A stretch of DNA of 64,000 bases from Nitrospirota bacterium. GTDB taxonomy: Bacteria; Nitrospirota; UBA9217. The position numbers and the translations under genes are program-made. The notes below the pieces were generated by a model. It was given only the letters and a program-made list of their open reading frames with translations. It had not been told where the DNA came from and did no database searches. The stretch covers positions 1 to 64,000 of the forward strand of contig CAWBNQ010000008.1 in assembly GCA_963790205.1 (NCBI GenBank), written 5' to 3'. Below, piece after piece: positions 17,446-35,738 of the stretch (its first letter is position 1; each line of letters begins with the position of its first letter).

Positions 17446-17473
17446 ATTATATGCCGTCAGCTCTTTTTGTCAA
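17446..17473 (-). promoter_or_regulatory. sigma70 promoter of bioA
   Basis: Minus strand TTGACA-16 nt-TATAAT. Confidence 0.65.
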
Positions 17474-17637
17474 TGCCATCTATAGCGAGGCCCTTCGGCG
17501 GGGTCAGGGGTGCTTCCGAAGTATTCTGGCGCTGAGCCTATTTCATTGAGTCGGCGCAGGCCACTTATTTTGGGTTTTTTGGGAATCCGCCCAAAAAGTC
17601 TAAGGTTTTTCGAAGCTGAATTTAGGGGTTTCCCCGA

Positions 17638-17666
17638 TTGACATGATGGTTCTAAAGTATTATAGT
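17638..17666 (+). promoter_or_regulatory. sigma70 promoter of the transglutaminase/giant-protein locus
   Basis: TTGACA-17 nt-TATAGT, ~180 nt before ATG 17843. Confidence 0.6.
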
Positions 17667-17842
17667 TTGTGGACAAAAACGCAGGTTGTTTCAAAAGTGC
17701 AATCTCAATCCGAAAACAGCGCCTTCCTTAATATTTACTGGTTCGACGATTCACGGTTAGAACAGTATCAGCATTTCCCGCTTTTGCTTTAATGCAGCGC
17801 AGAATTCGTTTTAAAACTGAATAGGCACAAGGAGAGCAAGCC

Positions 17843-18891
17843 ATGCGCGTGAAGACCTTCTACCGGGTTTTAAGACTCATCTCGGCAGTCGTGCTATTTT
17901 TCTTTATCTGGACGTTCGGCCCGGTATGGCAGGCCGTTGCTTTTGCAGCAACGCCACAGAGTCAAGGGCCAGGGGGCAAGGGCCACATAGAAGCGCGCGA
18001 TACGCCCATACAAACGGCATCAGAACGGTTTGAAAAGGCGCTGGAAGGGATTCGCGCGGGCGTCTCGAAGGCCGGAGAGAAAGCGGGGAGGGGCGAGGAT
18101 GTGACCGCTGAGGTCGCAGGAATAAAGGCAAAGAAAGCGGAGATTGAAAAGATCGATGCAGACCTCAGGGCCGAATTCGCTGCAACCGAAAAGAAGCTCA
18201 AAGACGCCAAGCTGCCGCAGGTCATCCTCGACCGGCAGGCAGCGTTCGTCAAGAACTACGACAAGAACCTCACTCAGCTCAAATCCGAGATCGACGACAT
18301 CGACAAAGCAAAAACTGCGACAGACCTCAAGGCCAGGATCGAAACAGCGCGGCTGCATCTTGAAAAGGTAAAGCCTGCCAAAAAGCACGTCCCGCTCGAT
18401 CCAAACAAGCTGCCGAACAGAATGGTCAAGGCCAGGGCAAGAATGCCAAGGCTCAGGAAAGAAGATTTCGAAAAGGATTTTCTCCGGCAGAAAAAGACAA
18501 CACATAGTTCATCGCTCATAGCTTTAAATCATGAACTAATATCTACGAGCCATGAGCTATTTCATTTCGCATTCCGAAATCCGAAATCGGGAATTGAGCA
18601 CAAGCCCATTCTCGTCGCTTCCAACGGACCATTGACCGGCCTGTTATCATCTGATTCTAAACCCGAAACACTCGCATTGCCTTCCTCTGTGAAATCTATG
18701 CCTTCTGTGGCAAATGAAGTCGCTTTGAATCTTGAATCCGGCACATTGAATTTGGCAGCGGTCACGACCGTGGACGCGCCAACTGCCGACGATCTCTCCG
18801 AGACTACGGAAATCCAGTTCACGGACGCCATCCGCGCCAAGGCCCAGGAACTCGGCTACAGTCCTGTCAAAATATACGAGTATGTTAGGAA
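17843..18891 (+). pseudogene. secreted transglutaminase-like (putative polymorphic toxin) protein, 5' part, interrupted by IS4
   Basis: Sec-type signal peptide (MRVKTFYRVL...AVAFA), coiled-coil region, then DLSETTEIQFTDAIRAKAQELGYSPVKIYEYVRN. Joins 20277 in frame once the IS is removed. Confidence 0.85.
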
Positions 18892-20267
18892 CACACCCGT
18901 CCAAGATAGGATTTGAGTAATTGCAGGGGAAGCCTCAATCGGATAAAGTAGGTTTGTCGAGGACCTAAATTTACCGATGGAGGACATCCCCGTGAACAAG
19001 TGTAGCAGTATCTTCGGTCAGATTCTACAGATATTTTCGCATCAGGATTTTGTCAGGGCTGTACGAGAAACACGGGCTGAAAAAGGGGTAAAGGGATTCA
19101 GTTGCTGGGGCCAGTTTGTGGCGATGGTGTTCTGTCAGTTGGGACAAGCCCACTCGCTGCGAGAGATATGCGGCGGATTAGCGACGTGCCTGGGCAAACT
19201 CAAACACCTTGGAATTGACGCAGCACCCAAACGCTCCACCTTGGCCTATGCCAACGAACATCGGCCTTGGCAATTGTACCAGAAGGTTTTTTATCAGCTG
19301 TTGGCAAAATGCCGGGTTCTCGCACGAGGGAAGAAGCCGTTTCGGTTCAAGAACAAGCTGTTCAGCCTCGATGCCACCCTGATTGAGCTTTGCGTCACCT
19401 TGTTTGACTGGGCAAAGTACCGCCAAACGAAAGGAGCAATCAAGCTTCACCTGTTATTGGACCACGACGGATATCTTCCGGTCTTCTGCAGTATGACCGA
19501 GGGGAACGTGCACGAAGTAAACATCGCGCATACGCTGAAGTTCCCCAAAGGCTCTATTCTGGCAATCGACCGGGGATATGTGGATTATGAACAGTTCGCA
19601 CGGTGGACGGAGGCCGGCATCTTCTTCGTAACGGGAGAAAAAGACAATGCCGCTTTCAGGGTGATCGAAACAAGACCGGTTCCTGAAAACCGGAATATCA
19701 TCAAAGACCAGCTCATTGAACTGACGGGCTACGAATCAATCAAGAAGTGCCCGCATACCTTGCGACGGGTAGAGGTATGGGACGAAGAAAATGAGCGAAC
19801 GATTGTTCTCTGGACGAACCACCTCGCCTTCGGCGCGACGACCATAGCCAGCATTTACAAGGACCGCTGGCAGATCGAGATATTTTTCAAGACGATCAAG
19901 CAGAATCTGAAGATCAAGACGTTCGTGGGAACGAGCCAGAATGCCTTGCTGACACAGATTTGGACAGCATTAATTGCCATCCTGGTATTGAAGTACCTGA
20001 AGTTCCGGTCAACGCTCGGGTGGTCGCTGTCGAACCTGGTTGCCATGCTTCGTTATAATCTCTTCACTTACAGAGATTTATGGATGTGGCTGGATAATCC
20101 GTTTGAAACGCCGCCGATCGTGCCGTCTGCGGAGCAATTGGTAATGAGATATCGGTAATTGGACAGCAGAATGAGGAACCTGAATCTATGAAAAGGGATT
20201 TACCTGTCTAAAAACCTTGATTGGCAAGGGTGGGCGTTAGGGAATCAGACTATCTTGGACAGCAGTG
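18892..20267 (+). mobile_element. IS4-family insertion sequence, 1376 bp, intact
   Basis: IRL CACACCCGTCCAAGATAG (18892-18909) and IRR CTATCTTGGACAGCAGTG (20250-20267), 15/18 match. 9-bp direct repeat TGTTAGGAA at 18883-18891 and 20268-20276. Confidence 0.93.
18977..20158 (+). CDS. IS4-family DDE transposase (DUF4372-type N-terminus)
   Basis: FSCWGQF, SLREI, RSTLAYAN, LDAT, KLH, DRGY, YKDRWQIEIFFK (YREK). True start may be GTG 18992 after GGAGG. Confidence 0.95.
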   Translation: MEDIPVNKCSSIFGQILQIFSHQDFVRAVRETRAEKGVKGFSCWGQFVAMVFCQLGQAHSLREICGGLATCLGKLKHLGIDAAPKRSTLAYANEHRPWQLYQKVFYQLLAKCRVLARGKKPFRFKNKLFSLDATLIELCVTLFDWAKYRQTKGAIKLHLLLDHDGYLPVFCSMTEGNVHEVNIAHTLKFPKGSILAIDRGYVDYEQFARWTEAGIFFVTGEKDNAAFRVIETRPVPENRNIIKDQLIELTGYESIKKCPHTLRRVEVWDEENERTIVLWTNHLAFGATTIASIYKDRWQIEIFFKTIKQNLKIKTFVGTSQNALLTQIWTALIAILVLKYLKFRSTLGWSLSNLVAMLRYNLFTYRDLWMWLDNPFETPPIVPSAEQLVMRYR

Positions 20268-20276
20268 TGTTAGGAA

Positions 20277-22629
20277 CAACATCGAATTCGTTCCCACCTA
20301 CGGCAGCATCCAGGGCGCGGACATGTGCCTCCAGACAAAGCAGTGCAACGACTTCGATACTGCGTCACTTCTAATCGCACTTCTTCGGGCCTCGAATATT
20401 TATGCGCACTATTCCTATGGAACTATCGAAGTCCCAATTGATAAAGTCATGAACTGGGCAGGCGGTTTTACAGATCAGACATCAGCATTGAATTTCATCG
20501 CTAGTGGTGGGATTCCTGTTACAGGCCTCAGATCTGGAGGCATTATATATGCTGCACAGATGGAACACGTCTGGGTCAAAGCCTGGATAGACTATATTCC
20601 CTCACTTGGGGCAATTCAGAAACAAGGAAATACATGGATTCCGCTTGATGCCAGTTTTAAACAGTATTCCTACACAGATGGGGTAGACTTACAAGCAGCC
20701 GTACCCTTCGACGGCCAGAATCTTGCCGATCAAATAAAGGCGAGTGCCACTATCAACGACCAGGAAGGATATGTAACGAACGTCAACTCTTCACTCATTC
20801 AAACAGCATTATCGGATTACAACGCCCAGCTCGAGAACTATGTGGCGCAGAACTTCCCAAATACCACTGTTGGCGATATTCTTGGGAAAAAAGAAATCAT
20901 CCTGAAATCGCAACCTATCCTTCCAGCCAGTCTGCCTTATAAGGTAGTCGTGATCGGAACAGAAACAAGCGCGGTCCCGGATCAGCTCAGGCACAAGATC
21001 ACCATTCAACTTACGGATACTGATAATCCTGGGAGCCCTGCCTTTACCTATACGACCAGCTTGCCTCAATTGGCCGGGAAAAGATTCACGATCAGCTATA
21101 ATCCCGCCACTGATGCAGACCAAACGACTATTAATAGTTATGTTGAACAATACGCTACGAGCATACCCGCCTATCTTGTGCAATTTAAACCGGTTCTGAA
21201 AATAGAAGGCACCACAGTCGCTACCGGTGCGACCGTCGGAATGGGGAAAGCCCAGAACCTTACGATTTCTGTTGTCTCTCCGAATAGCACTGAAATGGTC
21301 ACTCACAACCTGTTGGCTGGAGACTATTCAGCGATCGGCATAAATCCTTCGAAGATCAACCTTGATGTTCTCCAAAACAGAATCAATAAAAGTGACTTCT
21401 CCGAACCCGTCGGCGAAATGCTTCACCAGACAGCCCTTTCATACTGGGCTGAGGCGGATGCGTTCAACGATATTACCGCGAAGACATTGCGCGTAGACAG
21501 CTTCCGGCACCCGTCAGAACTTGCGGCCTCAGCCAAAGTATCTGTCACGTATATTTGGGGTGTTCCGAGTTCAGCTGCGTATAATCACATAAACATTGAT
21601 GTGAAATTTGACAATCAGACGGTTTTCAGCAAGTCGGCAGACAAGACGAAAGAGTTTAATTATATGCAGCAATCTGGTGTCAACTCTTCTTTCCTCGAAG
21701 GCGCAATTATGGACCAACTTTATGGAAGGACTATTGGTGACAGCATTTCTGCTGTAACAGCGCTGAAGGCGGCAAATGATCAAGGCATCCCAATCTTTAA
21801 AATTGATTTGTCAAATATTACGGTGATACTGCCGAATCTCCAGATGACAGATGCTATCAAGACTGAAATATCGAATGCAATTAATGGGGGGCTTACGGTT
21901 CAGATACCGCAGACGAACATCACGCAATCCGGCTGGACTGGCGTGGGTTATATCGTTTCTAACCCAACAGATGGGAGCGGTGCGTACAGAATTAGTGGTG
22001 GCTTGAATGGAGGAGATAGCAGTACAAATACAAGTACCGTGTATCCTATAGCACCAGTGCCGGCAACGGGTGTTGGAGCAATGATTCTTGGATCTATAGC
22101 GGATAGTAGCCAAATTATGCTCAAGGTCGTTGGGGGTGTTATTGTAGGAATTGAGTTACCTGCTTGGTTAGTGATAGGAACGATAACAGCGTTTGTACTC
22201 GCCTTGATCGTTGTAATATCGGATGCCATTTCGAAAAGCAGGTCTCCTGAGGATTGGATAACACTACGTCACTATACAAAATATTTTGTAGTGCCTATAA
22301 TTTCTGTCATGGGATTAGAATCGGATACTGGCCAAATATTCCTGACCGATCTGCAGTTGTCTCCAGGTGGTTCAAGGCCGGATGGCACTCCAAACAATGT
22401 TTACATTGCAAATGCTCTCGAACTCATGGATAAAAATGGTAATAGAGATACCTCAAAGGGAACCGGCTACCTTGAATTACAGATAAATAGGGCAGCATTT
22501 AATGGACAGCCTCATATATTGAAACCGTGTGCAATACAGGACGTTCAACCGTGCAATGAATGGATTTTTCCGTTTCCTTATCTCGAAATTAACACATATC
22601 GAGTAAAATTAATAACAACGTATCCATGA
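20277..22629 (+). pseudogene. secreted transglutaminase-like protein, 3' part, with hydrophobic linker and C-terminal ADP-ribosyltransferase-like (HYT) domain
   Basis: PTYGSIQGA, DTASLLIALLRA, EHVWV, WIPLDASFKQY, GAYRISGGLNGG, a hydrophobic stretch, then LRHYT...IFLTD...YLEL...NEW. Confidence 0.8.
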
Positions 22630-22644
22630 TGAAGGAGTCTAATT

Positions 22645-23661
22645 ATGAGAAAATTTGCGGAAGCGAACGGCCCAACAGCGCTATATACAGCACAAAATTA
22701 TCTTTTTGCAGTAGGTCGGGAAAAAACAGTAGAAATTTATGACGTCACTGTTAAGGAATTACCTGCTCATGTTGGATCTGTGCCTGTTCCGAATGTTGAG
22801 TATGCGATTAGGCTTCTTTTAGAGTATAAGAAAAATCAGTTTATCTTTGCTTCCAGTTATATTGGATCCTATCTCGTAGATATCAGCAATTTATCCCAAG
22901 TAGCAATATCAAAAGTCTTGTCAATTGCCCCAATGAAGATGCAAGCATGCAAAGAAGATTATTTTATAGTGGCTTCAACGACGCGTGGCGGGATATTTCA
23001 ATTTGTACAAGACACTGAAATGAAAGAGACAAGCTTCATAGATAAAAGCCTATGGGATTTTTTGCTTTTCAATGACACTCTTTTCTGCGCTTGTTCAGAA
23101 GCCGGATTCAAAGTTTTTGATATTTCCCGCTTGAAAAAACCTGTGCTCCTGTCACAGCCACTTGGCAGTTTTTTTTGTACAAGCCTTGCACCTTTAGACA
23201 AAAATACAGCTGTCGTTAAGGACGAGCGAGGATCAATTTATTTTGTGGATATAACAACTCCGGCAAAACCGAGACAACTATCGCAAATAGAGGGCGCGTT
23301 ATATCCATATAAGAGTTTTTTTGTTAGTTATCCTTATTTAATTGTTCGTATGAAAGATGACGATAGGCACATGATTAAAGTTTTCGATTGCTCAAAGCCA
23401 ACTAATCCCAAATTAGTCTTTACTTATGCCGCGCCACATATCGTTTACGTTACCTTCAAAAGCCCTTATTTCGCAGGGTGGGGACTTCAGCAGGATGTAG
23501 TGCAGTCAAAATCTAGCTTTGAAATCATGAAAATTGATAAAGAAGGAGAACTCCAAAAAGTAAAGTCGATAGCTGAACCAGTACAGGTGTATTCTGCAAT
23601 TCTTATGGAAGAGCATGCTTATGTTGCGAGAGATGATGGAATATTCGTCATGCCTCTTTAA
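22645..23661 (+). CDS. LVIVD-repeat beta-propeller protein, candidate immunity protein
   Basis: Repeated V(F/Y)D(I/V)S/T..P units (DISRLKKPVLLS, DITTPAKPRQLS, DCSKPTNPKLV); no signal peptide; very AT-rich; AAGGAG RBS; 15 nt after the toxin-like stop. Confidence 0.7.
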   Translation: MRKFAEANGPTALYTAQNYLFAVGREKTVEIYDVTVKELPAHVGSVPVPNVEYAIRLLLEYKKNQFIFASSYIGSYLVDISNLSQVAISKVLSIAPMKMQACKEDYFIVASTTRGGIFQFVQDTEMKETSFIDKSLWDFLLFNDTLFCACSEAGFKVFDISRLKKPVLLSQPLGSFFCTSLAPLDKNTAVVKDERGSIYFVDITTPAKPRQLSQIEGALYPYKSFFVSYPYLIVRMKDDDRHMIKVFDCSKPTNPKLVFTYAAPHIVYVTFKSPYFAGWGLQQDVVQSKSSFEIMKIDKEGELQKVKSIAEPVQVYSAILMEEHAYVARDDGIFVMPL

Positions 23662-23701
23662 AGAAATTGGGAGACTACGGGATATGCGTTCAGGAGGTCG
23701 T

Positions 23702-26700
23702 ATGCTAAAGCGGATTCTATTTGGAATCATCCTTATATTTTTGTCGGCAAGGGCAGGTTTTGCCCAGCCAGCCACAGTGGCATCCGGCATAAACTGGCTC
23801 ATCGCAAATCAGAACGCCGATAAGAGCTGGGGCGGAACTTCATCATTGGTGACGCCGTTTAATACGACAGCCGCAGCCGTCTCAGCTTTGAAAATGTGCG
23901 GCAATACCGGATCAGCCGCTGTTGATGGTTTGAATTGGCTGAACGGACAAACTCCTGATTCTGTCAATTACACTGCTGATAGACTTCTAGCAAATGCCCT
24001 CGCCGGCCTTGACACTACAAGTGGTCTAGGCCAACTCGTCACTTGGAAAAATAATATAGATGGCTCGTGGGGATTAGATGGTGAGTATTCAAATGATATT
24101 GTGGAAATCGCACTTACCCTACAAGCTCTTCATGCCGCAAATTATTCCGACTATTCTAGCCTATTCCAAACAATCAACTTTCTTACAGCAAATCAAAATT
24201 TAGATGGTGGGTGGGGTGCCTCGACCGGAGATGCCAGCAACATTTACGTCACGTCAATGGTCCTCCGGGTACTGTCCGCAAACAGCACCGTCTTCTTCAT
24301 CAATCAAAACATCATCTCTCAAGCCTCTGCCTTCCTGCTCGCCCATCAAAACACCGACGGGGGGTTCGGGGATTCTCCTTCAACTGTTTACGCTACGGCT
24401 CTATCTCTCATGTCCCTGATCGAAAGCGGCCAAGGGAGCACGCAGACCATTTTGAACGGCATCACGTACCTCGCCTCATCCCAACTCGCTGACGGCTCCT
24501 GGAACGACGATCCCTATTCAACCGCACTTGCTCTCCAGGCCCTTGCAGAAGCACGACCGAACCTTACGGTCTCAACCTCCGGGATCACCTTCTCGAATAC
24601 CATGCCCCTATCCGGGGCCACGACGACCATCAGCGCCGTGATAAGCAATACGGGATACGACAACGCATCGAACGTGGTCGTCCGTTTCTATTTCGGCGAT
24701 CCAGCGGTCGGCGGAACTCAGATCGGCACGGACCAGATACTTCCGTTCATAGCTCTTGGCTCATCGGCCCAGGCGTCAATCACAACGAGTTTCAGCGACA
24801 CCGGTGCTAAGACCATCTTCGTCGTCGCTGACCCTGATAACCTCATATCCGAAACAAACAAGCTCGACAACAAAGCCTCAGCCCGGCTCTGGGTGGCAAC
24901 CGGCCCGGACCTCGCGGTTTACTCCGCGGACCTTATACCCTCAACCTACGTTCCAACCGCGGGAACCGCGTTCACGCTCAACTACACCATAAGAAATCTA
25001 GGCGAGAGCCCTGCAGGTGCATTTACCGCGGCCTTGTATGACGGCGACCCGGCAAACAACGGCGTTCTCCTCCAGACCGCCGATATCTCCGGCATAAACG
25101 GAAGCGACATGCGTGCCGGGACCTTAGGCGTCACGCTCACGACGAACGGCTCCCATACGCTCTACCTTGTCGCCGACTCCGGGAACGTAATCACCGAGAT
25201 ATCCAAGACCAACAACACCGCCTCGGTCACGGTGAACGTGGGCGGGACGCTCACCCAGGCCGATCTGACAATTTCACCCACGGACATTATTCTAAATCCC
25301 TCCCGGCCCCATGCAGGCGACACGGTCCAGATCGCCGCAAATGTCCATAACACCGGCGCTGATGCGGCAAATAACTTCACCGTCGAGATCTTCGACGGCG
25401 CGCCCGAATCGGGCGGCACGCTCATAAACAGCCAGACGATCTCCCTTGTCGCCGGCGGGTCGCAGCTTGTAATCGCCAGCTGGGCCATACCCACGGGCAT
25501 CCATGATGTTTACGTGATCCTCGACCGGGCCAACCAGATCGTCGAATCGAACGAGAACAACAACCGCGCGTCAGTCAGGATCATGACCGACATGGTGGAC
25601 ATAGAAATCTCCGCCACAGACCTCGTCTTTAGCCCTGCCCATCCTGTCTCCGGAGACGCCGTAGCCTTCACCATCACCGCGCACAACACCGGCATCAAGG
25701 ACACCGGCCCGTTCAACCTTGCGCTCTATAACGGCGACCCGAGCGCAGGGGGAGCACTTTTAAATACGTATGCAGTAGGGAGTATACAGGGGGATGGGAC
25801 AACTGCGTTCACGTACACCTTCATTGCGTCGCCCCAGGTTTACCGGTTCTATGCCGTGGCTGACCCCGAAAACGTGGTAGCCGAGATGTACGAAGACAAC
25901 AACACCGCCGTCCGCTCGCTCACTATCAAAGCACCGGGCGAGACCCTGGGCCCCGACCTCGTTCCGATCAAGGTCGACCTCACGGACACCACAACCGATC
26001 CCCAGACCCTTGCCATCTCCGGCACGGCCCACGTCACTTTCCAGAACATCGGCGACGACAAGATAACCGCGCCCTTTAACGTCATCATTTTCGAGGACAA
26101 AGACGGAGACGGCAAATATACCGCGGGCGTGGATAACCTCCTCGGCACAGCCACGAACACGATGACCCTCTGGCCCGAAGACGCCGGCATGATCGATCTG
26201 CCGCTTTCCGGCGCGGTCACGTTCCTGCACTCGCCGCTCTACGCCTTCGTGGACTCAGGCGACGCCATCCTGGAGCAGAACGAGGACAACAATATCCTCG
26301 TCTCCTGCAAAGACTGCCAAGTCGTGCCTACGAACCCGATACAACCAAAAGTCAAGTGGAAGTGGGGGCTGCCTAGTGCCACTTGGTTGTTGTTGCCACA
26401 ACCTACAATCATGCATTTGCGGGACACGAACGGTGACGGAAAGATAGATCAAAATGATGTTCCCGACATCGTACTCGTTACGCTGCAAACTTATTATTAT
26501 TTTGGGAAAATCTGGGCCTTCAAGGGTGATACGGGGGAGAACTACTTTTCACTCTACGATACGAACCATCCGGTGGATACGCTCTCCTATCTTTCGTCCG
26601 GCGACATCGACGGTGACGGGAAACCAGAGATCATTTTTGAAACTCCAAACCCCATCTATGGTTATGGATTGGTCGTCTACAACAACGACTGGACCTTGAA

Positions 26701-29700
26701 GTGGGACGATAGTGCTCAAGTCCAGGCATGGAAAACAGCCCATCCACCAAGCCCCGGCGGCAATTTTTACCCCACTATTTCTCAGAGGAACGTTACCGCC
26801 ATTGCCGACCTCGATGGAGATGGGAACAAGGAAATCGTCTCGGGACCGACAGTAATAAACGCGGACGGCTCGGTCCGGTGCGCCGGCTATAACTCGTATA
26901 ATGGCAGCGGGAAAGGCTACTTCAATGTATATGGAGGGGTATTATATGACTTTGCCGCGGTCGCCGATCTGAACTTGGACGGTCAGCAGGAGATCGTGGC
27001 CGGGAATGCAGCGTATGACAACAATTGCAAGCTCCTCTGGTGGAAATCTTCGCTCCCCGACGGGGCAGTCGCTATCGCCAATTTCGACGGCGATCCCTAC
27101 CCGGAAATTGTTTTGGAAGGATACGTTTCAGGTGATGCTGCGGTTTATCTTCTCGACCACGCGGGTAATATCAAATGGGGTCCGGTATCCGTAAGACAGC
27201 TCCTTGGAAATAACTCAATTGGTAGCTTTGCCGCAAGTCCGCCAATTGTGGCAGACTTCGACGGGGACGGCAAGCCGGAAATAGGGATCAGGAGCGAGAA
27301 TAAGATTTTAGTCTTAAATAAGGACGGTCAGCTCAAGAATACTCTCACGATCCCGAATTATAGTACCAGCTCCGCCCGGAGTGCGGCTCCTACAGTCTTC
27401 GACCTCGACGGAGATGGCATCCCGGAAGTGATGATAAACAGCGGTGGCTACTTCACGATCCTCTCTGGGAAAGACGGCACAGTTTTGTACCAGGACCTTT
27501 TTGGCGGCTATGATAACGTTTTTCCACAAAACGTGCTTGTCGCGGACGTGGACGGCGATGGGCAGGTCGAGTTGGTAGTGACCGGTCATGATGATAAGAA
27601 CAGTCTCGAAGCAATGCGCGTCTACCATTCGTCCGATCCCAATCATCCCTGGAGCAACGGCCGCACCGTCTGGAACCAGCTCAGCTACCACGTCACGAAC
27701 GTGAACGACGACGGCAGTATCCCGCAGCATGAGGCGCCGAGCTGGCTTTTAAACAACTCGTTTATGACCCAGGCGGGCATCGGGAGAAACCCGAACCCTT
27801 ATCTCACGCCGAACCTCACAGCCTCTAACATGCGCATCGAGCAGGCAGGCTTATCGGTCAACCTCGCGGTCAGGGTCGGCAACGGTGGTGCAGTCGCATC
27901 GGGACCAACTGTCACCGTCACGTTCTACGACGGCCCTTCGACAGGCTCAGGGCAGGCTCTCACGGATGCAATGATCATCGGAACAGCATCGACCACACAG
28001 GTCCTTAATCCCGGCCAGTTCCAGGACGTGGTCTACAGCTGGTCCGGAGGAAGCCTTGGCCTCCATCATATCTATGCAGTCGTGGACGCGGCAAACGCCA
28101 TCACCGAATGCCGCAAGGACGACAACCAGACCGCAGCAGACGTTACCATTGTCGTCGAGTACCCGGACCTCACGATCATCCCTCAAAACATCGCGTTGCC
28201 CGTGGGTCCCTATTACGAAGGGACCCCCATTCCGGTCACGGCGACAATAAGCAACATCGGCGGCCTTGCGGCATCGAACGTCGCTGTCCGGCTCTACAAC
28301 GGCAATCCTTCGGCAGGCTCAGGACAGGTCCCGGGCGGAGTGCAGGTCGGAGAGGACCAGGTAGTACCATTGATCAACGCCGGAGGGTCGGCCTCTGTCA
28401 CATTCAGTTTTAACACGCTTGGCGATGCCGGAACGAACGTGCTCTACATCGTCGTTGACCCGGCAAATGCCATCGCCGAGGTAACCAAGGCGAATAACAC
28501 CGCCTCCATGATGATTCTGGTCCAGCAGCCCGTGCTTCCCGATCTTGCCGTCTCAGCAACCGACATCCAGCTTACGCCAACGGCCCCCCGGGAAGGAGAT
28601 ACCGCCACAATAACGGCAGTGATCCATAACTTCGGCACAACCGTAGGCAACATCCCAATAAGCTTCTACCTCGGAAGTCCAACAGCCGGAGGGACGCTCA
28701 TAGCGAGCCAGACCATCTACCCGGTTGTGGCTTCAGGCACGACGGCAACCATCCAGGCGAGCCTGGATACCACCGGCTGGGCAGGTCAGCAGCAGGTCTA
28801 CGTGGTCGTAGATCCTGCGAATACCATAACCGAAAGCAACAAAGGCAACAACAGCGCCTCCCAGCCGTTCTTTGTCCAGTCGGCAGGGCTCAACGCAACG
28901 GTCGCCACCGACAACGCGACTTATCCGGCAGATTCCGTCCTGACCGCCGCGATCACGGCAAGCGACGCCACCGGGAGCACCCGGACCCTCACCCTCGGCC
29001 TCTATGTCCAAGACAGCGCGGGAAACCGCATCGCGACCATATCATCCGCTGATCCCGTAACCGTGGGCCCGAACAGCAGCGTTACGCTCACCCGGACCTG
29101 GAACACGGCAGCAACTCTTGCCGGCCAGTACACGATGCTCTGCGAACTGTCCGAATCAGGCAGGGTCATATCCCGGAAGAGCGCCGGGTTCACGATCACC
29201 CCGGACATCCGCATGAGCGCGGCCGTTACCACGGACAAGATATCCTATAACCCCAATGACACGGCGGGCCTCACCACAACCGTAACGAGCCAGAGCAGGA
29301 ACACCATTTTCGGGAGCCTGACGGCAGAAGTCAGTATGCAGGATGCAGTGGGCAGCGGGCAGGTGTTCACGGAAACGAGGACCATATCGACACTCATGCC
29401 CGGCGCAACGTTCACGTTCAAGAGCTACTGGAACACCGGGACCTATGCCTCCGGGACCTATCCCGTCACACTCATTGTACGAGATTCAACCGGGGCGGTT
29501 CTTGCCACGGGAACGCAGACGCTCACGATCACGAACGTCATAAACCCCACATCGGTCCTCCGGGGCCAGATCTCCGTGGGCGCCCAGGAGCTTCTGTCCG
29601 GACAGACCTCGACCGTGTCCTACAATGTCACGAACGTGGGCAACGCCGACCTTCAGAACGTTACGCTTACCGTGCTCACGGTAAATGTCTCCGACCAGAC

Positions 29701-31825
29701 CGTGTACGACACGTTCCCGTATCAAGCGACCCTTGCCATGGGAGGATCAACGGCAAACACGATCCTGATCGACACGACCAGGTACACGGCCAAGGACTAC
29801 CTCGTCATCCTCCAGGCAACCATCGGCAGTCTGACGGAAACCCTTAGCGGCGCCTACTTCCGGATCGAGGGCGCGCCGTCAAACCCGTCGCTCGTCGGGC
29901 CTGCCGACGGCTCCGACGTTCTTACCTTCACGCCGACCTTGACCGTGAATAACGCTTCGGACCCGAACGACGATAAGCTTACCTACCAGTTCGAGCTCTA
30001 CAGCGACAGCGGGCTGACACAGCCCGTTGCATCATCAGACCTGCTCACCCAGGGCACGGGGACAACGTCATGGACTGTGCCCCTTACCCTCACGGAAAAC
30101 CAGACCTACTATTGGCGCGCCCGGGCTTATGACAACTGGCTCTACGGCCCCTGGATGGCGCCCGCCTCCTTCCGGGTCAATACCGTGGACGATCCGCCCA
30201 CGGCGCCCCTGATCAGCAGCCCCACGGACGGCAGCCAGGTCGCGGCCTACACGCCGGTCCTTACCGTGACCAACGCCACGGACCCGGACAGCCCGAGCCT
30301 TACCTACAACTTCGATCTGGCCCTCGATCCCGGATTCATCCAGATCATTGCCGCGACCACAGGCGTCATGAGCAGCCAGACATCGACTATGTCCAGCCAG
30401 GGGACCACATCGTGGCAAGTTCCGGCAAATCTGGTAGAGAATACCTGGTACTACTGGAGGGCGCAGGCAGACGACTGGTTCATGACCGGCCCGTGGTCAA
30501 CGACAGCTTCGTTCTTCGTCAACACCGCGAACGATCCACCGACAATGCCGGTTATCACGGCCCCGGCGAACAATGCGACCATAGCTGCCCTCGATACGGA
30601 CATCACGGTCGCGAACAGCACGGACCCCGATTCCCCGGTCATCGCGTACTTCTTCGAGGTCGATACGGTCCCGACCTTCGATTCATCCAATATCATCCGC
30701 TCAGGCAGTATAGCCCAGGGCCAGGCTGCGACGACCTGGTATGTTACGGGCCTTACAGAAGACACCCAGTACTATGTCCGGGTGAAGGCCTCCGACGGGC
30801 AGGCGGACAGTCTGTGGTCGGCGACTGCCTCCTTCTTCGCAAACGCAGTGAACGAGCCGCCGACCGCGCCGACGCTTGCCAACCCGTCCAATGCCGGCGC
30901 GGTGACCGTGTTCACGCCGACGCTTTCAATCCTGGATTCGACCGATCCTGATAGGGATGTCCTCACCTATGATTTTGAGGTCTACTCCGACGCAGCCTTA
31001 TCAACTCTGGTAACCGGGACAACCGGTGTGGCTGAGACCAGCCAGATCACGTCCTGGACCGTGCCGGCCATGCTTACGGAAAACCAGACCTACTACTGGA
31101 GAACACGCGCCTTTGACGGCAAGCTCTACAGCCCCTGGATGCCGGCGGCCTCCTTCATGGTAAATACCGCCGATGACGCGCCGAGCGCCCCGAAACTCTC
31201 TTCACCGGCTGACGGGAGTAGCGTCGCAACACTGACACCTACGCTCGCAATCGTGAACGCGACCGACCCGGACAGCCCGAGCCTCACGTATGACTTCGAG
31301 ATATACAGCGGCGGAGCGCTCGTTACTTCCATAATAGGCGTGCCCGGCGGCAGCTCAGGCACCACATCGGCAACCCCGGCCACAGCGCTTACTGACAACA
31401 CCATTTATCAGTGGCGCTGCCGGGCTTATGACGGCCAGCTTTACGGCCCCTGGACCGCCATGGCAAGCTTCACGGTCCATCTGCCGCAAACAGGCATCAC
31501 CGCCACGATCGACTTCGACCCGGACACGCTCAATACAACGAGCAACGGGACCTGGGTCGTGGTCTATATCGAGCTGCCGGCGGGCTACAACGTCAAGGAC
31601 ATCGATGTCTCGTCGATCCGGCTCGAAGGGACCATCCCAGCAGAAACCCGGCCCTACGCGATCGGCGACCATGACAAGGACGGAATCCCGGACCTCATGG
31701 TCAAGTTCAAGCGGAGCGACGCGATCAACGTCCTGCCGCTCGGAGACAGCGTTCCCGTCCATGTGACGGGTAAGGTCGGACCGACGACCTTCGACGGCGT
31801 GGACGTGATCAGGGTAATGCCGTGA
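23702..31825 (+). CDS. giant secreted multidomain protein (2707 aa): prenyltransferase/squalene-oxidase-like repeats, 7 CARDB domains, FG-GAP/VCBS propeller, Ig-like domains, 5 FN3-like repeats
   Basis: AGGAGG RBS and signal peptide MLKRILFGIILIFLSARAGFA; QNxDGxWG repeats; DP.N.I.E....NN CARDB motifs; DxDGDGxxEI motifs; five PxxP...DPD...YxWRxRAxD repeats; C-terminal DHDKDGIPDLMVKF. Confidence 0.9.
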   Translation: MLKRILFGIILIFLSARAGFAQPATVASGINWLIANQNADKSWGGTSSLVTPFNTTAAAVSALKMCGNTGSAAVDGLNWLNGQTPDSVNYTADRLLANALAGLDTTSGLGQLVTWKNNIDGSWGLDGEYSNDIVEIALTLQALHAANYSDYSSLFQTINFLTANQNLDGGWGASTGDASNIYVTSMVLRVLSANSTVFFINQNIISQASAFLLAHQNTDGGFGDSPSTVYATALSLMSLIESGQGSTQTILNGITYLASSQLADGSWNDDPYSTALALQALAEARPNLTVSTSGITFSNTMPLSGATTTISAVISNTGYDNASNVVVRFYFGDPAVGGTQIGTDQILPFIALGSSAQASITTSFSDTGAKTIFVVADPDNLISETNKLDNKASARLWVATGPDLAVYSADLIPSTYVPTAGTAFTLNYTIRNLGESPAGAFTAALYDGDPANNGVLLQTADISGINGSDMRAGTLGVTLTTNGSHTLYLVADSGNVITEISKTNNTASVTVNVGGTLTQADLTISPTDIILNPSRPHAGDTVQIAANVHNTGADAANNFTVEIFDGAPESGGTLINSQTISLVAGGSQLVIASWAIPTGIHDVYVILDRANQIVESNENNNRASVRIMTDMVDIEISATDLVFSPAHPVSGDAVAFTITAHNTGIKDTGPFNLALYNGDPSAGGALLNTYAVGSIQGDGTTAFTYTFIASPQVYRFYAVADPENVVAEMYEDNNTAVRSLTIKAPGETLGPDLVPIKVDLTDTTTDPQTLAISGTAHVTFQNIGDDKITAPFNVIIFEDKDGDGKYTAGVDNLLGTATNTMTLWPEDAGMIDLPLSGAVTFLHSPLYAFVDSGDAILEQNEDNNILVSCKDCQVVPTNPIQPKVKWKWGLPSATWLLLPQPTIMHLRDTNGDGKIDQNDVPDIVLVTLQTYYYFGKIWAFKGDTGENYFSLYDTNHPVDTLSYLSSGDIDGDGKPEIIFETPNPIYGYGLVVYNNDWTLKWDDSAQVQAWKTAHPPSPGGNFYPTISQRNVTAIADLDGDGNKEIVSGPTVINADGSVRCAGYNSYNGSGKGYFNVYGGVLYDFAAVADLNLDGQQEIVAGNAAYDNNCKLLWWKSSLPDGAVAIANFDGDPYPEIVLEGYVSGDAAVYLLDHAGNIKWGPVSVRQLLGNNSIGSFAASPPIVADFDGDGKPEIGIRSENKILVLNKDGQLKNTLTIPNYSTSSARSAAPTVFDLDGDGIPEVMINSGGYFTILSGKDGTVLYQDLFGGYDNVFPQNVLVADVDGDGQVELVVTGHDDKNSLEAMRVYHSSDPNHPWSNGRTVWNQLSYHVTNVNDDGSIPQHEAPSWLLNNSFMTQAGIGRNPNPYLTPNLTASNMRIEQAGLSVNLAVRVGNGGAVASGPTVTVTFYDGPSTGSGQALTDAMIIGTASTTQVLNPGQFQDVVYSWSGGSLGLHHIYAVVDAANAITECRKDDNQTAADVTIVVEYPDLTIIPQNIALPVGPYYEGTPIPVTATISNIGGLAASNVAVRLYNGNPSAGSGQVPGGVQVGEDQVVPLINAGGSASVTFSFNTLGDAGTNVLYIVVDPANAIAEVTKANNTASMMILVQQPVLPDLAVSATDIQLTPTAPREGDTATITAVIHNFGTTVGNIPISFYLGSPTAGGTLIASQTIYPVVASGTTATIQASLDTTGWAGQQQVYVVVDPANTITESNKGNNSASQPFFVQSAGLNATVATDNATYPADSVLTAAITASDATGSTRTLTLGLYVQDSAGNRIATISSADPVTVGPNSSVTLTRTWNTAATLAGQYTMLCELSESGRVISRKSAGFTITPDIRMSAAVTTDKISYNPNDTAGLTTTVTSQSRNTIFGSLTAEVSMQDAVGSGQVFTETRTISTLMPGATFTFKSYWNTGTYASGTYPVTLIVRDSTGAVLATGTQTLTITNVINPTSVLRGQISVGAQELLSGQTSTVSYNVTNVGNADLQNVTLTVLTVNVSDQTVYDTFPYQATLAMGGSTANTILIDTTRYTAKDYLVILQATIGSLTETLSGAYFRIEGAPSNPSLVGPADGSDVLTFTPTLTVNNASDPNDDKLTYQFELYSDSGLTQPVASSDLLTQGTGTTSWTVPLTLTENQTYYWRARAYDNWLYGPWMAPASFRVNTVDDPPTAPLISSPTDGSQVAAYTPVLTVTNATDPDSPSLTYNFDLALDPGFIQIIAATTGVMSSQTSTMSSQGTTSWQVPANLVENTWYYWRAQADDWFMTGPWSTTASFFVNTANDPPTMPVITAPANNATIAALDTDITVANSTDPDSPVIAYFFEVDTVPTFDSSNIIRSGSIAQGQAATTWYVTGLTEDTQYYVRVKASDGQADSLWSATASFFANAVNEPPTAPTLANPSNAGAVTVFTPTLSILDSTDPDRDVLTYDFEVYSDAALSTLVTGTTGVAETSQITSWTVPAMLTENQTYYWRTRAFDGKLYSPWMPAASFMVNTADDAPSAPKLSSPADGSSVATLTPTLAIVNATDPDSPSLTYDFEIYSGGALVTSIIGVPGGSSGTTSATPATALTDNTIYQWRCRAYDGQLYGPWTAMASFTVHLPQTGITATIDFDPDTLNTTSNGTWVVVYIELPAGYNVKDIDVSSIRLEGTIPAETRPYAIGDHDKDGIPDLMVKFKRSDAINVLPLGDSVPVHVTGKVGPTTFDGVDVIRVMP
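27935..27956 (+). repeat. 22-nt REP-like element inserted in frame (copy 1)
   Basis: CCTTCGACAGGCTCAGGGCAGG, read as PSTGSGQ. Confidence 0.65.
28307..28328 (+). repeat. 22-nt REP-like element inserted in frame (copy 2)
   Basis: CCTTCGGCAGGCTCAGGACAGG, 20/22 identical to copy 1, read as PSAGSGQ. Confidence 0.65.
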
Positions 31826-31898: not shown

Positions 31899-32029
31899 CG
31901 AACATGTCTAAAAAGTAATGCCGGACCCCGTCAATATTAAAAAGGGCTTGAAAAGCCTTGCTTATTTCTGGTAGAATGCGCTTTACTTCAAAGAGAGCTG
32001 AAAGACGCATCAGGAGGTTTTTTTCTGCC

Positions 32030-34712: not shown

Positions 34713-34845
34713 GGTTCCGTTGGATGCCGAATTGTAAATTTCAAATTGCAAATTGGAAAATGAAAACTTGAGGAAGTAAAATCTACTAGTTTCAATTTCC
34801 AACCTTAATTTTTCAATTCTTTATTTGCCTTATTTAGGAGGACAG

Positions 34846-35590
34846 ATGTCAGGCCACTCAAAATGGGCAACAACGAAGCACAAGAAAGCCGCTACTGATG
34901 CGAAGCGCGGAAAGATATTCACCAAGATCGGCAAGGAGATCACGGTCGCGGCCAAGCTTGGAGGCGGAGATCCCGGCGGCAACCCCCGTCTCAGGACGGC
35001 GATCGCAAAGGCGAAGTCGGTCAGCCTTCCGGCCGAGAACATCAAGCGTGCGATCCAGAAAGGCACCGGCGAGCTGCCGGGGGTCTCGTACGAGGAAATA
35101 ATCTACGAGGGATACGGACCGGGCGGCGTTGCGGTCATTGTCGAGGTCCTGACCGACAACCGGAACAGGACCGTTTCCGAGATCCGTAATATTTTCAGCA
35201 AGGCCGGCGGCAACATGGGCGAGGCGGGCTGCGTTTCATGGATGTTCCATAAGAAAGGTTATCTTGTCGTCAATCGCGCAAAGGCCGATGAGGACAAACT
35301 CATGACCCTGGCGCTTGATGCGGGAGCAGAGGACATGCAGACCGAAGATGATAACTTTGTGATCACGACGACCTTGAACGATTTCGAAAAGGTTAAAAAG
35401 ACGCTCGAGGACGCCGGCGTGCAGCTCGGACGTCTCCGAGGTCACCATGATACCGCAGACCTATGTGAAGCTCGACGGCAAGGAGGCCCATCAGATGCTT
35501 CGTCTTGTGGAAGCCCTCGAAGACAACGATGACGTCCAGAATGTCTATGCCAACTTCGATATTCCCGAAGAAATATTGAGTTCAGTATAG
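34846..35590 (+). CDS. yebC: YebC/PmpR family protein (one +1 frameshift near 35429, probable sequencing error)
   Basis: [27 protein letters not shown]; deleting one G restores [13 protein letters not shown]. Confidence 0.93.
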
Positions 35591-35738
35591 GAACGGCAGG
35601 CGGGCGGCATGCCGCGCATGCCGAACTGGAAATTGGAAGTTTAAATTGATGCTTGAAAAATTGAGGAGGTGGCTTCCTTGCGATCTCCCATTTCCAATCT
35701 TCAAGGTACCATGATTTTCCGGTCCACGGGGGGGCTTT

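Follow-up and report, generated by a model that had tools for sequence, protein, structure and literature searches.

The three-gene locus described here lies in a window of 64,000 nucleotides of Nitrospirota DNA (the whole stretch that was analysed) and very probably encodes an interbacterial polymorphic toxin-immunity system, one of a large family defined by a carrier protein with an inactive transglutaminase domain. This reading is based on sequence comparison, which revealed a conserved carrier body, a swappable tip, a cognate low-GC next gene, a linked giant protein bearing a toroid, and a mobile locus; toxicity, immunity, and binding between carrier and giant are predicted from these patterns. 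An initial annotation had already proposed a polymorphic toxin-immunity system, and the genomic evidence supports that proposal well, in that family-wide similarity ends at a defined boundary, the tips are diverse, the next gene co-varies with the tip, and toroid proteins are neighbours of the carriers.

The three genes are co-oriented and, as originally noted, tightly spaced, with gaps of 15 nt (22629/22645) and 40 nt (23661/23702). The sigma70 promoter proposed ahead of them could be located as a TTGACA-17-TATAGT site at 17638-17666 (11/12). The locus, flanked by two copies of GTCAAT, is a 14.46-kb insert in the bioA/degP divergent promoter region. In 29/29 other family genomes (those with the bioA locus listed), degP is the direct divergent neighbour of bioA, and a single GTCAAT was found at each empty site inspected, confirming the suggested insertion between these two genes and consistent with a mobile locus. 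The coordinates of all features are collected in Table 1.

Table 1. Features of the toxin locus and its boundaries (window positions).
Feature	Positions	Strand	Remarks
Left GTCAAT copy, 6-bp target duplication marking the left end of the insert	17469..17474	+	Single copy at the empty site of relatives
Promoter and leader of gene 1	17564..17842	+	-35 at 17638, -10 ending at 17666
Gene 1, 5' piece: Sec-type signal peptide, helical region, start of transglutaminase fold	17843..18893	+	
IS4-family insertion sequence inside gene 1	18894..20267	+	Transposase 18977-20158
Gene 1, transglutaminase core (inactive)	20279..20655	+	Asp at the catalytic-Cys position; His and Asp kept
Gene 1, conserved body	20656..21984	+	C-half groups by cargo class on the tree; no clear solved-structure match
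YRISGGLNGG boundary motif	21985..22014	+	End of family-wide similarity
Hydrophobic helix before the enzyme domain, candidate membrane-crossing segment	22135..22224	+	Peak 19-mer hydropathy 2.58; putative role
Gene 1 tip: probable divergent Tox-ART-HYD1-like (ADP-ribosyltransferase-fold) domain	22231..22629	+	RHYT / GQIFLT / NEW
Gene 2: low-GC, signal-less LVIVD beta-propeller, candidate cytoplasmic immunity protein	22645..23661	+	Immunity predicted from the family pattern
Gene 3, signal peptide and N-terminal helical toroid (squalene-cyclase/prenyltransferase-like)	23702..24556	+	No DxDD, no CxEQ
Gene 3, remainder: CARDB repeats, FG-GAP propeller, more CARDB/Ig, FN3-like repeats, C-terminal domain	24557..31825	+	
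Right GTCAAT copy, followed by the native degP promoter	31930..31935	+	6-bp target duplication

Gene 1, whose signal peptide is likely cleaved after AVAFA at about 17947 as judged from the sequence, is interrupted by an insertion sequence (IS) of 1,374 bp with terminal inverted repeats and an 11-bp target duplication (18883-93 and 20268-78). The same genome holds one 99.9% copy of this element and four 85% copies, and given the former the insertion is probably recent. Uninterrupted, gene 1 would encode 1,133 aa by arithmetic, the length first proposed for it after removal of the element, and the frame offset agrees with IS insertion. The copy in the window is a pseudogene, its toxin gene inactivated by the IS, a status that lowers the value of this locus and not that of the family; genes 2 and 3 are intact. 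The 3' piece (20221-22629) retains a long open frame, predicted as a protein of 768 aa (P0001) that lacks a signal peptide. Were this frame translated, the cell would produce the ART-like tip in its own cytoplasm, and gene 2 would still be useful.

Two intact carrier paralogues with other tips are present in the same genome (G000), on contigs C1 and C3. The window carrier and the C1 paralogue are 88-94% identical over aa 1-200, compared to 26-52% in the body C-half, and their tips and partners are unrelated. The corresponding giants are 82% identical overall, with 31-53% over the first 200 residues and 63-96% beyond. Because the start of the carrier and the giant beyond residue 200 are conserved while the body C-half, tip, partner, and start of the giant diverge, this pattern is that expected of a cassette swapped between conserved anchors.

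Carriers were found in 12 of the 41 genomes compared. Most non-self matches to a 782-aa query (25/32) end at residues 578-586, at the YxISGG motif, and none extends beyond 622, in line with the predicted collapse of conservation after YxISGGxNGG. A scan of representative genomes confirmed 187 carrier stretches, with 71 loci listed, and a protein search in which 8,000 candidates were scored returned at least 1,863 relatives of similar length (clusters, 601-1,915 aa). By their tree labels, the named loci span nine phyla (Nitrospirota, Nitrospinota, Thermodesulfobacteriota, Myxococcota, Pseudomonadota, Acidobacteriota, Methylomirabilota, Deferribacterota, and Bacillota), of which single labels may be wrong since most carrier genomes are bins. 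The signal peptide of 38 of 53 carriers passes a hydrophobicity cut-off, most others being signal-like by eye, and about 300 aa separate it from the transglutaminase core. From genus to genus, carrier signal peptides also share a motif ahead of the cleavage site, approximately F-x-W-x(3)-P-L-x-Q. A distant carrier subfamily of about 30% identity (L010, L011, L018, L029, L033, L034, and L035) carries long extensions rich in Ig domains that reach 440-500 aa or more, and one of them ends in what we take to be a lytic-transglycosylase-like motif.

The match of gene 1 to Pfam Transglut_core, source names such as 'transglutaminase-like putative cysteine protease', and retention of the His in 63/66 and of the Asp in 66/66 aligned carriers would all suit a secreted transglutaminase or cysteine protease that is active and serves to cross-link or process the giant. 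We consider such an enzyme highly unlikely, however, as the nucleophile column of the same carriers contains Asp (29), Ala (29), or Ser (8) and never Cys (0/66), and an enzymatic role would leave the variable tips with their cognate partners unexplained. The carrier transglutaminase domain is instead catalytically dead. For the body, a structure model (pLDDT 73, low in the transglutaminase part) gave no clear match in the PDB, which does not in itself establish a new fold. In a quick tree of the body C-half with SH-aLRT supports only, all 12 NlpC carriers and one with a cut-off tip form one group (support 84), and helix-plus-enzyme carriers mostly group with the window carrier (support 94); this grouping by tip class suggests that body and cargo class travel together.

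The tips themselves were surveyed in 82 carriers from the loci, reduced to 77 by dropping duplicates and 3'-open genes and to 76 by dropping one 33-aa remnant. Among the 76 were 13 NlpC/P60, 2 phospholipase A2, and 3 Rhs tips (one ending in HNH), 1 DUF6310, and 1 PKD; most others are hydrophobic bundles of 90-170 aa without a family. RHS repeats were absent from gene 1 and from 73 of these 76 tips in domain scans. The occurrence of NlpC/P60, phospholipase A2, and Rhs-HNH on the same body bears out the expectation of diverse toxin domains. The best 120 of the at least 1,863 relatives divide into 84 with a hydrophobic tip, 15 with a single helix, 13 with a helix and a soluble domain, 6 with NlpC, and 2 with no helix, and 117 of these tips fall into 54 clusters. 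As about 70% of the tips of these best-scoring relatives (84/120) are hydrophobic and without a known toxin family, pore formation is something that we can only infer. Five tandem carriers in one locus (L087) share 76-93% identity across the final 250 residues of the body, compared to 10-28% in their tips. Such tandem arrays and orphan tip cassettes (L022, L028, L045, L081, and L107) occur in the loci of relatives, with none in the window. No autoprotease or tip cleavage site was identified in the carriers.

The window's own tip consists of a hydrophobic helix followed by about 130 aa with RHYT, GQIFLT, YLELQIN, and NEW, and is probably a domain of the ADP-ribosyltransferase (ART) fold that falls below the Pfam cut-off. 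It resembles Tox-ART-HYD1 (PF15633) in its RHYT start, a G-x-[FY]-[LV]-T strand, and a late acidic or amide residue. In the Atlas, a Tox-ART-HYD1 cluster ranked third for this tip (feature score 0.94), with recognition just under threshold. The tip gave no Pfam match to PF15633 at the gathering score of 25 bits, and related tips match below the cut-off (1/5 in one set and 4/13 in another), four of them with E 0.001-0.018 and relatives scoring 16-20 bits. A profile of nine other RHYT tips, built without the window's tip, ranked that tip first among 33,647 six-frame genome segments (E 0.011); the motifs align, the Tox-ART-HYD1 signature being H, [RK], [FY], [DE]. The same profile gave E 1e-5 for P0122 and 1e-3 for P0002. 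A fold model of the tip was unusable (pLDDT 37). The tip also differs from Tox-ART-HYD1 in its partner, which is an LVIVD propeller and not Imm-My6CBD.

This partner, gene 2, is an LVIVD-repeat protein without a hydrophobic segment, and the AT-richness originally remarked upon is real (38.6% GC compared to about 55% for the genome, with 18/60 at 22801-22860). Across the family, 65 of 67 next genes have a GC content below that of their carrier. Out of 66 pairs, 13 pairs of homologous next genes were found, of which 11 also have homologous tips, where 0.3 would be expected and 10,000 shuffles yielded at most 4, as anticipated if the next gene co-varies with the tip; two of the 13 gave no tip match at threshold, and the pairs are not independent because kin and tandem copies are included. 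Examples are Methylobacter and Sideroxydans, and C1 and L070. Tip and partner also match in compartment when 64 pairs are classed by a simple hydropathy rule (3 pairs unclassed). The partner has a single N-terminal hydrophobic segment in 13/13 pairs with an NlpC tip, is a membrane protein in 38/42 with a hydrophobic tip, and lacks transmembrane segments in 5/6 with a helix-plus-enzyme tip. The original description of the adjacent gene as cytoplasmic holds for gene 2, which is signal-less, but not family-wide, since most partners are membrane or periplasmic. A signal-less LVIVD propeller would fit a toxin acting in the cytoplasm. Among the relatives searched, no second locus pairs a window-type tip with a gene-2 homologue, and the closest ART-type carriers have HEAT/ARM partners, not LVIVD. 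Partners of NlpC/P60 tips (L054, L067, L083, L081, L050, L084, and L099) include YARHG/DUF4424, DUF3160, TolB-like, and other propeller proteins, and are candidates for unrecognised periplasmic immunity families. At L097:3837-5363, a DUF6310 tip is followed by DUF5953, a likely toxin-immunity pair; neither family was mentioned in the literature searched.

The prevalence of hydrophobic tips without a toxin family raises an alternative, framed in the manner of hypotheses on the VARTIG module of Thermococcales, in which the locus is a variable surface or kin-recognition system and not a weapon. Hydrophobic tips would then anchor the carrier in its own envelope with a cognate membrane partner, NlpC/P60 tips would remodel the cell's own wall, and the Ig-rich giants would recall VARTIG, for which the part of the source consulted (PMC8416519) proposes self/non-self roles. 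We regard this as improbable, given that the same body bears Rhs-HNH, phospholipase A2, and ART-like tips, that helix-borne enzyme tips precede proteins without transmembrane segments, and that toxin loci typically feature orphan cassettes and partners of low GC.

Returning to the toxin-immunity reading, gene 3 is, as initially described, a secreted modular protein of 2,707 aa, and domain scans confirmed its signal peptide together with toroid, CARDB, FG-GAP, and FN3-like domains. The toroid lacks the CxEQ thioester and DxDD motifs that would mark an alpha-2-macroglobulin or a terpene cyclase. This N-terminal toroid of 270 aa is the part common to partner giants, the remainder varying in domain content between lineages. 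It occurs in 11/12 carrier genomes and 0/29 others (41 genomes, kin not being independent), and in 40 of 63 carrier loci, or 15 of 19 with wide flanks, either upstream or downstream, so the suggestion that prenyltransferase-repeat giants are conserved neighbours holds. Where carriers stand in tandem, each tends to be followed by a toroid protein, which is often shortened. No toroid was found near the C3 paralogue or in 4/19 wide-flank loci, and no giant within the wide flanks at L064, L069, and L073; at L043, the start of the giant lies at the locus edge, behind an IS. A mirror test of the toroid N-half against the body C-half gave a weak signal (rho 0.38).

We lean slightly towards a physical partnership between carrier and giant. 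The giant could also stand outside any toxin particle, as a co-transcribed adhesin or surface scaffold aiding contact, or as a mere traveller with the locus, an alternative that concerns the particle step only and leaves the toxin-immunity pairs real. The carrier loci without a giant (the C3 paralogue and the three wide-flank loci), the differing domain content beyond the toroid, and the weak mirror signal lend it some weight, and we hold it to be a sizeable, though lesser, possibility, since the toroid is restricted to carrier genomes, is kept beside carriers on either side, and recurs behind every carrier of a tandem array, often as a shortened version.

If carrier and giant do associate, they may form an undescribed class of two-chain, Sec-exported toxin particle, present in nine phyla, a tentative reading to which we give somewhat less than even weight. 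An Rhs-free, dead-transglutaminase carrier with a cargo-tuned body would dock on the giant's toroid and deliver periplasmic, membrane, or cytoplasmic toxins, employing a body of unmatched fold and no type VI secretion system (T6SS), two-partner secretion, or Rhs shell, as a counterpart of the umbrella toxins in mostly Gram-negative bacteria. On the main toxin-immunity reading, export of both proteins by Sec follows from their signal peptides, and exit across the outer membrane might proceed via a type II secretin or vesicles; the genome holds three secretin loci, as well as separate Rhs loci, two of which share the gene 1 promoter. Delivery as a T6SS effector was rejected, as no VipB was found in the 98%-complete genome (search control positive) and the carrier has a signal peptide. 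The dead transglutaminase domain would act as the docking site, probably for the toroid, with the Ig-like and propeller stalk of the giant reaching or binding the target surface and the body C-half shielding and presenting cargo of the matching class. The tip would be freed near YxISGG. NlpC/P60 tips would cut peptidoglycan, with periplasmic immunity; hydrophobic tips would damage the inner membrane, with immunity in the membrane; and helix-plus-enzyme tips, such as the ART-like tip of the window, would pass through the inner membrane to reach a cytoplasmic site of action, with cytoplasmic immunity (gene 2).

Section 19 and Table 1 of Zhang et al. 2012 (PMC3482391) describe polymorphic toxins with an inactive transglutaminase that always continue into RHS repeats. 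These share with the window carrier a signal peptide, an N-terminal transglutaminase without catalytic residues, a variable C-terminal toxin, and a Sec/T2SS route, and some relatives of the window carrier are themselves Rhs fusions (L031, L052, L073, and L102). In contrast to those toxins, only 3/76 tips here match RHS, a body of roughly 450 aa stands in its place, and the family comes with a linked giant bearing the toroid; CARDB, prenyltransferase, squalene, and LVIVD are not mentioned in the 300,000 characters of that paper's text covered, data supplement aside. The window system is a variant of these toxins in which Rhs is mostly absent and a giant partner is linked. The initial statement that no characterised system has this composition accordingly needs amending for the carrier in view of that part of Zhang et al., but stands for the arrangement with the giant, of which no description was found in the literature searched, although subscription papers and unseen supplements may hold one.

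The closest working analogy, and not kin, is provided by the Streptomyces umbrella particles (UmbA/B/C/D). The portions of PMC11062931 drawn on here describe a secreted multi-gene polymorphic toxin with an immunity gene directly downstream, a catalytically dead protease fold as binding module, and propellers proposed as target binders. Unlike these particles, window genes 1-3 lack ALF repeats, a trypsin-like UmbA, and the UmbB family in Pfam and NCBIfam scans; the hosts here are mostly diderm, the dead enzyme lies on the toxin chain, and the particle is a prediction. VARTIG likewise features a large secreted CARDB/Ig protein and a hypervariable locus likened to polymorphic toxins, but in the excerpts of PMC8416519 used here the Ig protein itself is hypervariable and transglutaminase goes unmentioned, whereas here an enzyme or membrane tip varies, with a cognate partner. 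Neither transglutaminase nor CARDB is mentioned in the part of Nachmias et al. (bioRxiv 10.1101/2021.10.19.465003) consulted, and the corresponding parts of a papain-like protease classification (PMC10318531) and of the TreTu paper (PMC9825190) provided background only.

The family, hidden in databases under the name 'transglutaminase', points to a way of bacterial competition that is common yet overlooked, in little-studied lineages from sediment, soil, and groundwater, and represents a pool of candidate antibacterial domains, most without a known family, along with their immunity genes. The particle, if real, would constitute a new delivery class. The family poses a testable question, namely by what means toxins of the wall, membrane, and cytoplasm enter a rival when their Sec-secreted carrier has neither an injection device nor an Rhs shell, and the system is testable now because cultured carriers exist (Methylobacter luteus IMV-B-3098 and Archangium lansingense MIWBW, as well as the Rhs-type Lysobacter sp. 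Root494 and Geomonas anaerohicana).

Several further observations concern the genome at large. Near-copies of the gene 1 promoter and leader (window 17564-17790) lie ahead of the C1 carrier, two Rhs genes, and another secreted giant (G000 C1:273633-273865, C3:718130-718310, C11:122603-122732, and C10:59486-59596), and these five loci, comprising two carriers, two Rhs genes, and a giant, possibly form a shared toxin regulon. A leader motif was also seen ahead of carriers in L025/L058 and L047. The intact C1 carrier has another IS (G000 C1:273865-275263), with a short duplication, immediately upstream of its -35 box; the promoter boxes are undamaged. The secreted giant on C3 (718193-729172), behind the shared promoter, is split by an IS, and its end domain resembles by eye the C-termini seen in the Ig-rich tips of L033 and L035, both distant carriers. 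An orphan, frameshifted 3' fragment of a giant at G000 C5:301694-302295, with no carrier nearby, is a trace of a lost copy. Lastly, a YebC/PmpR-like ORF in the window (34825-35532) displays an apparent frame shift near its 3' end (35300-35600).
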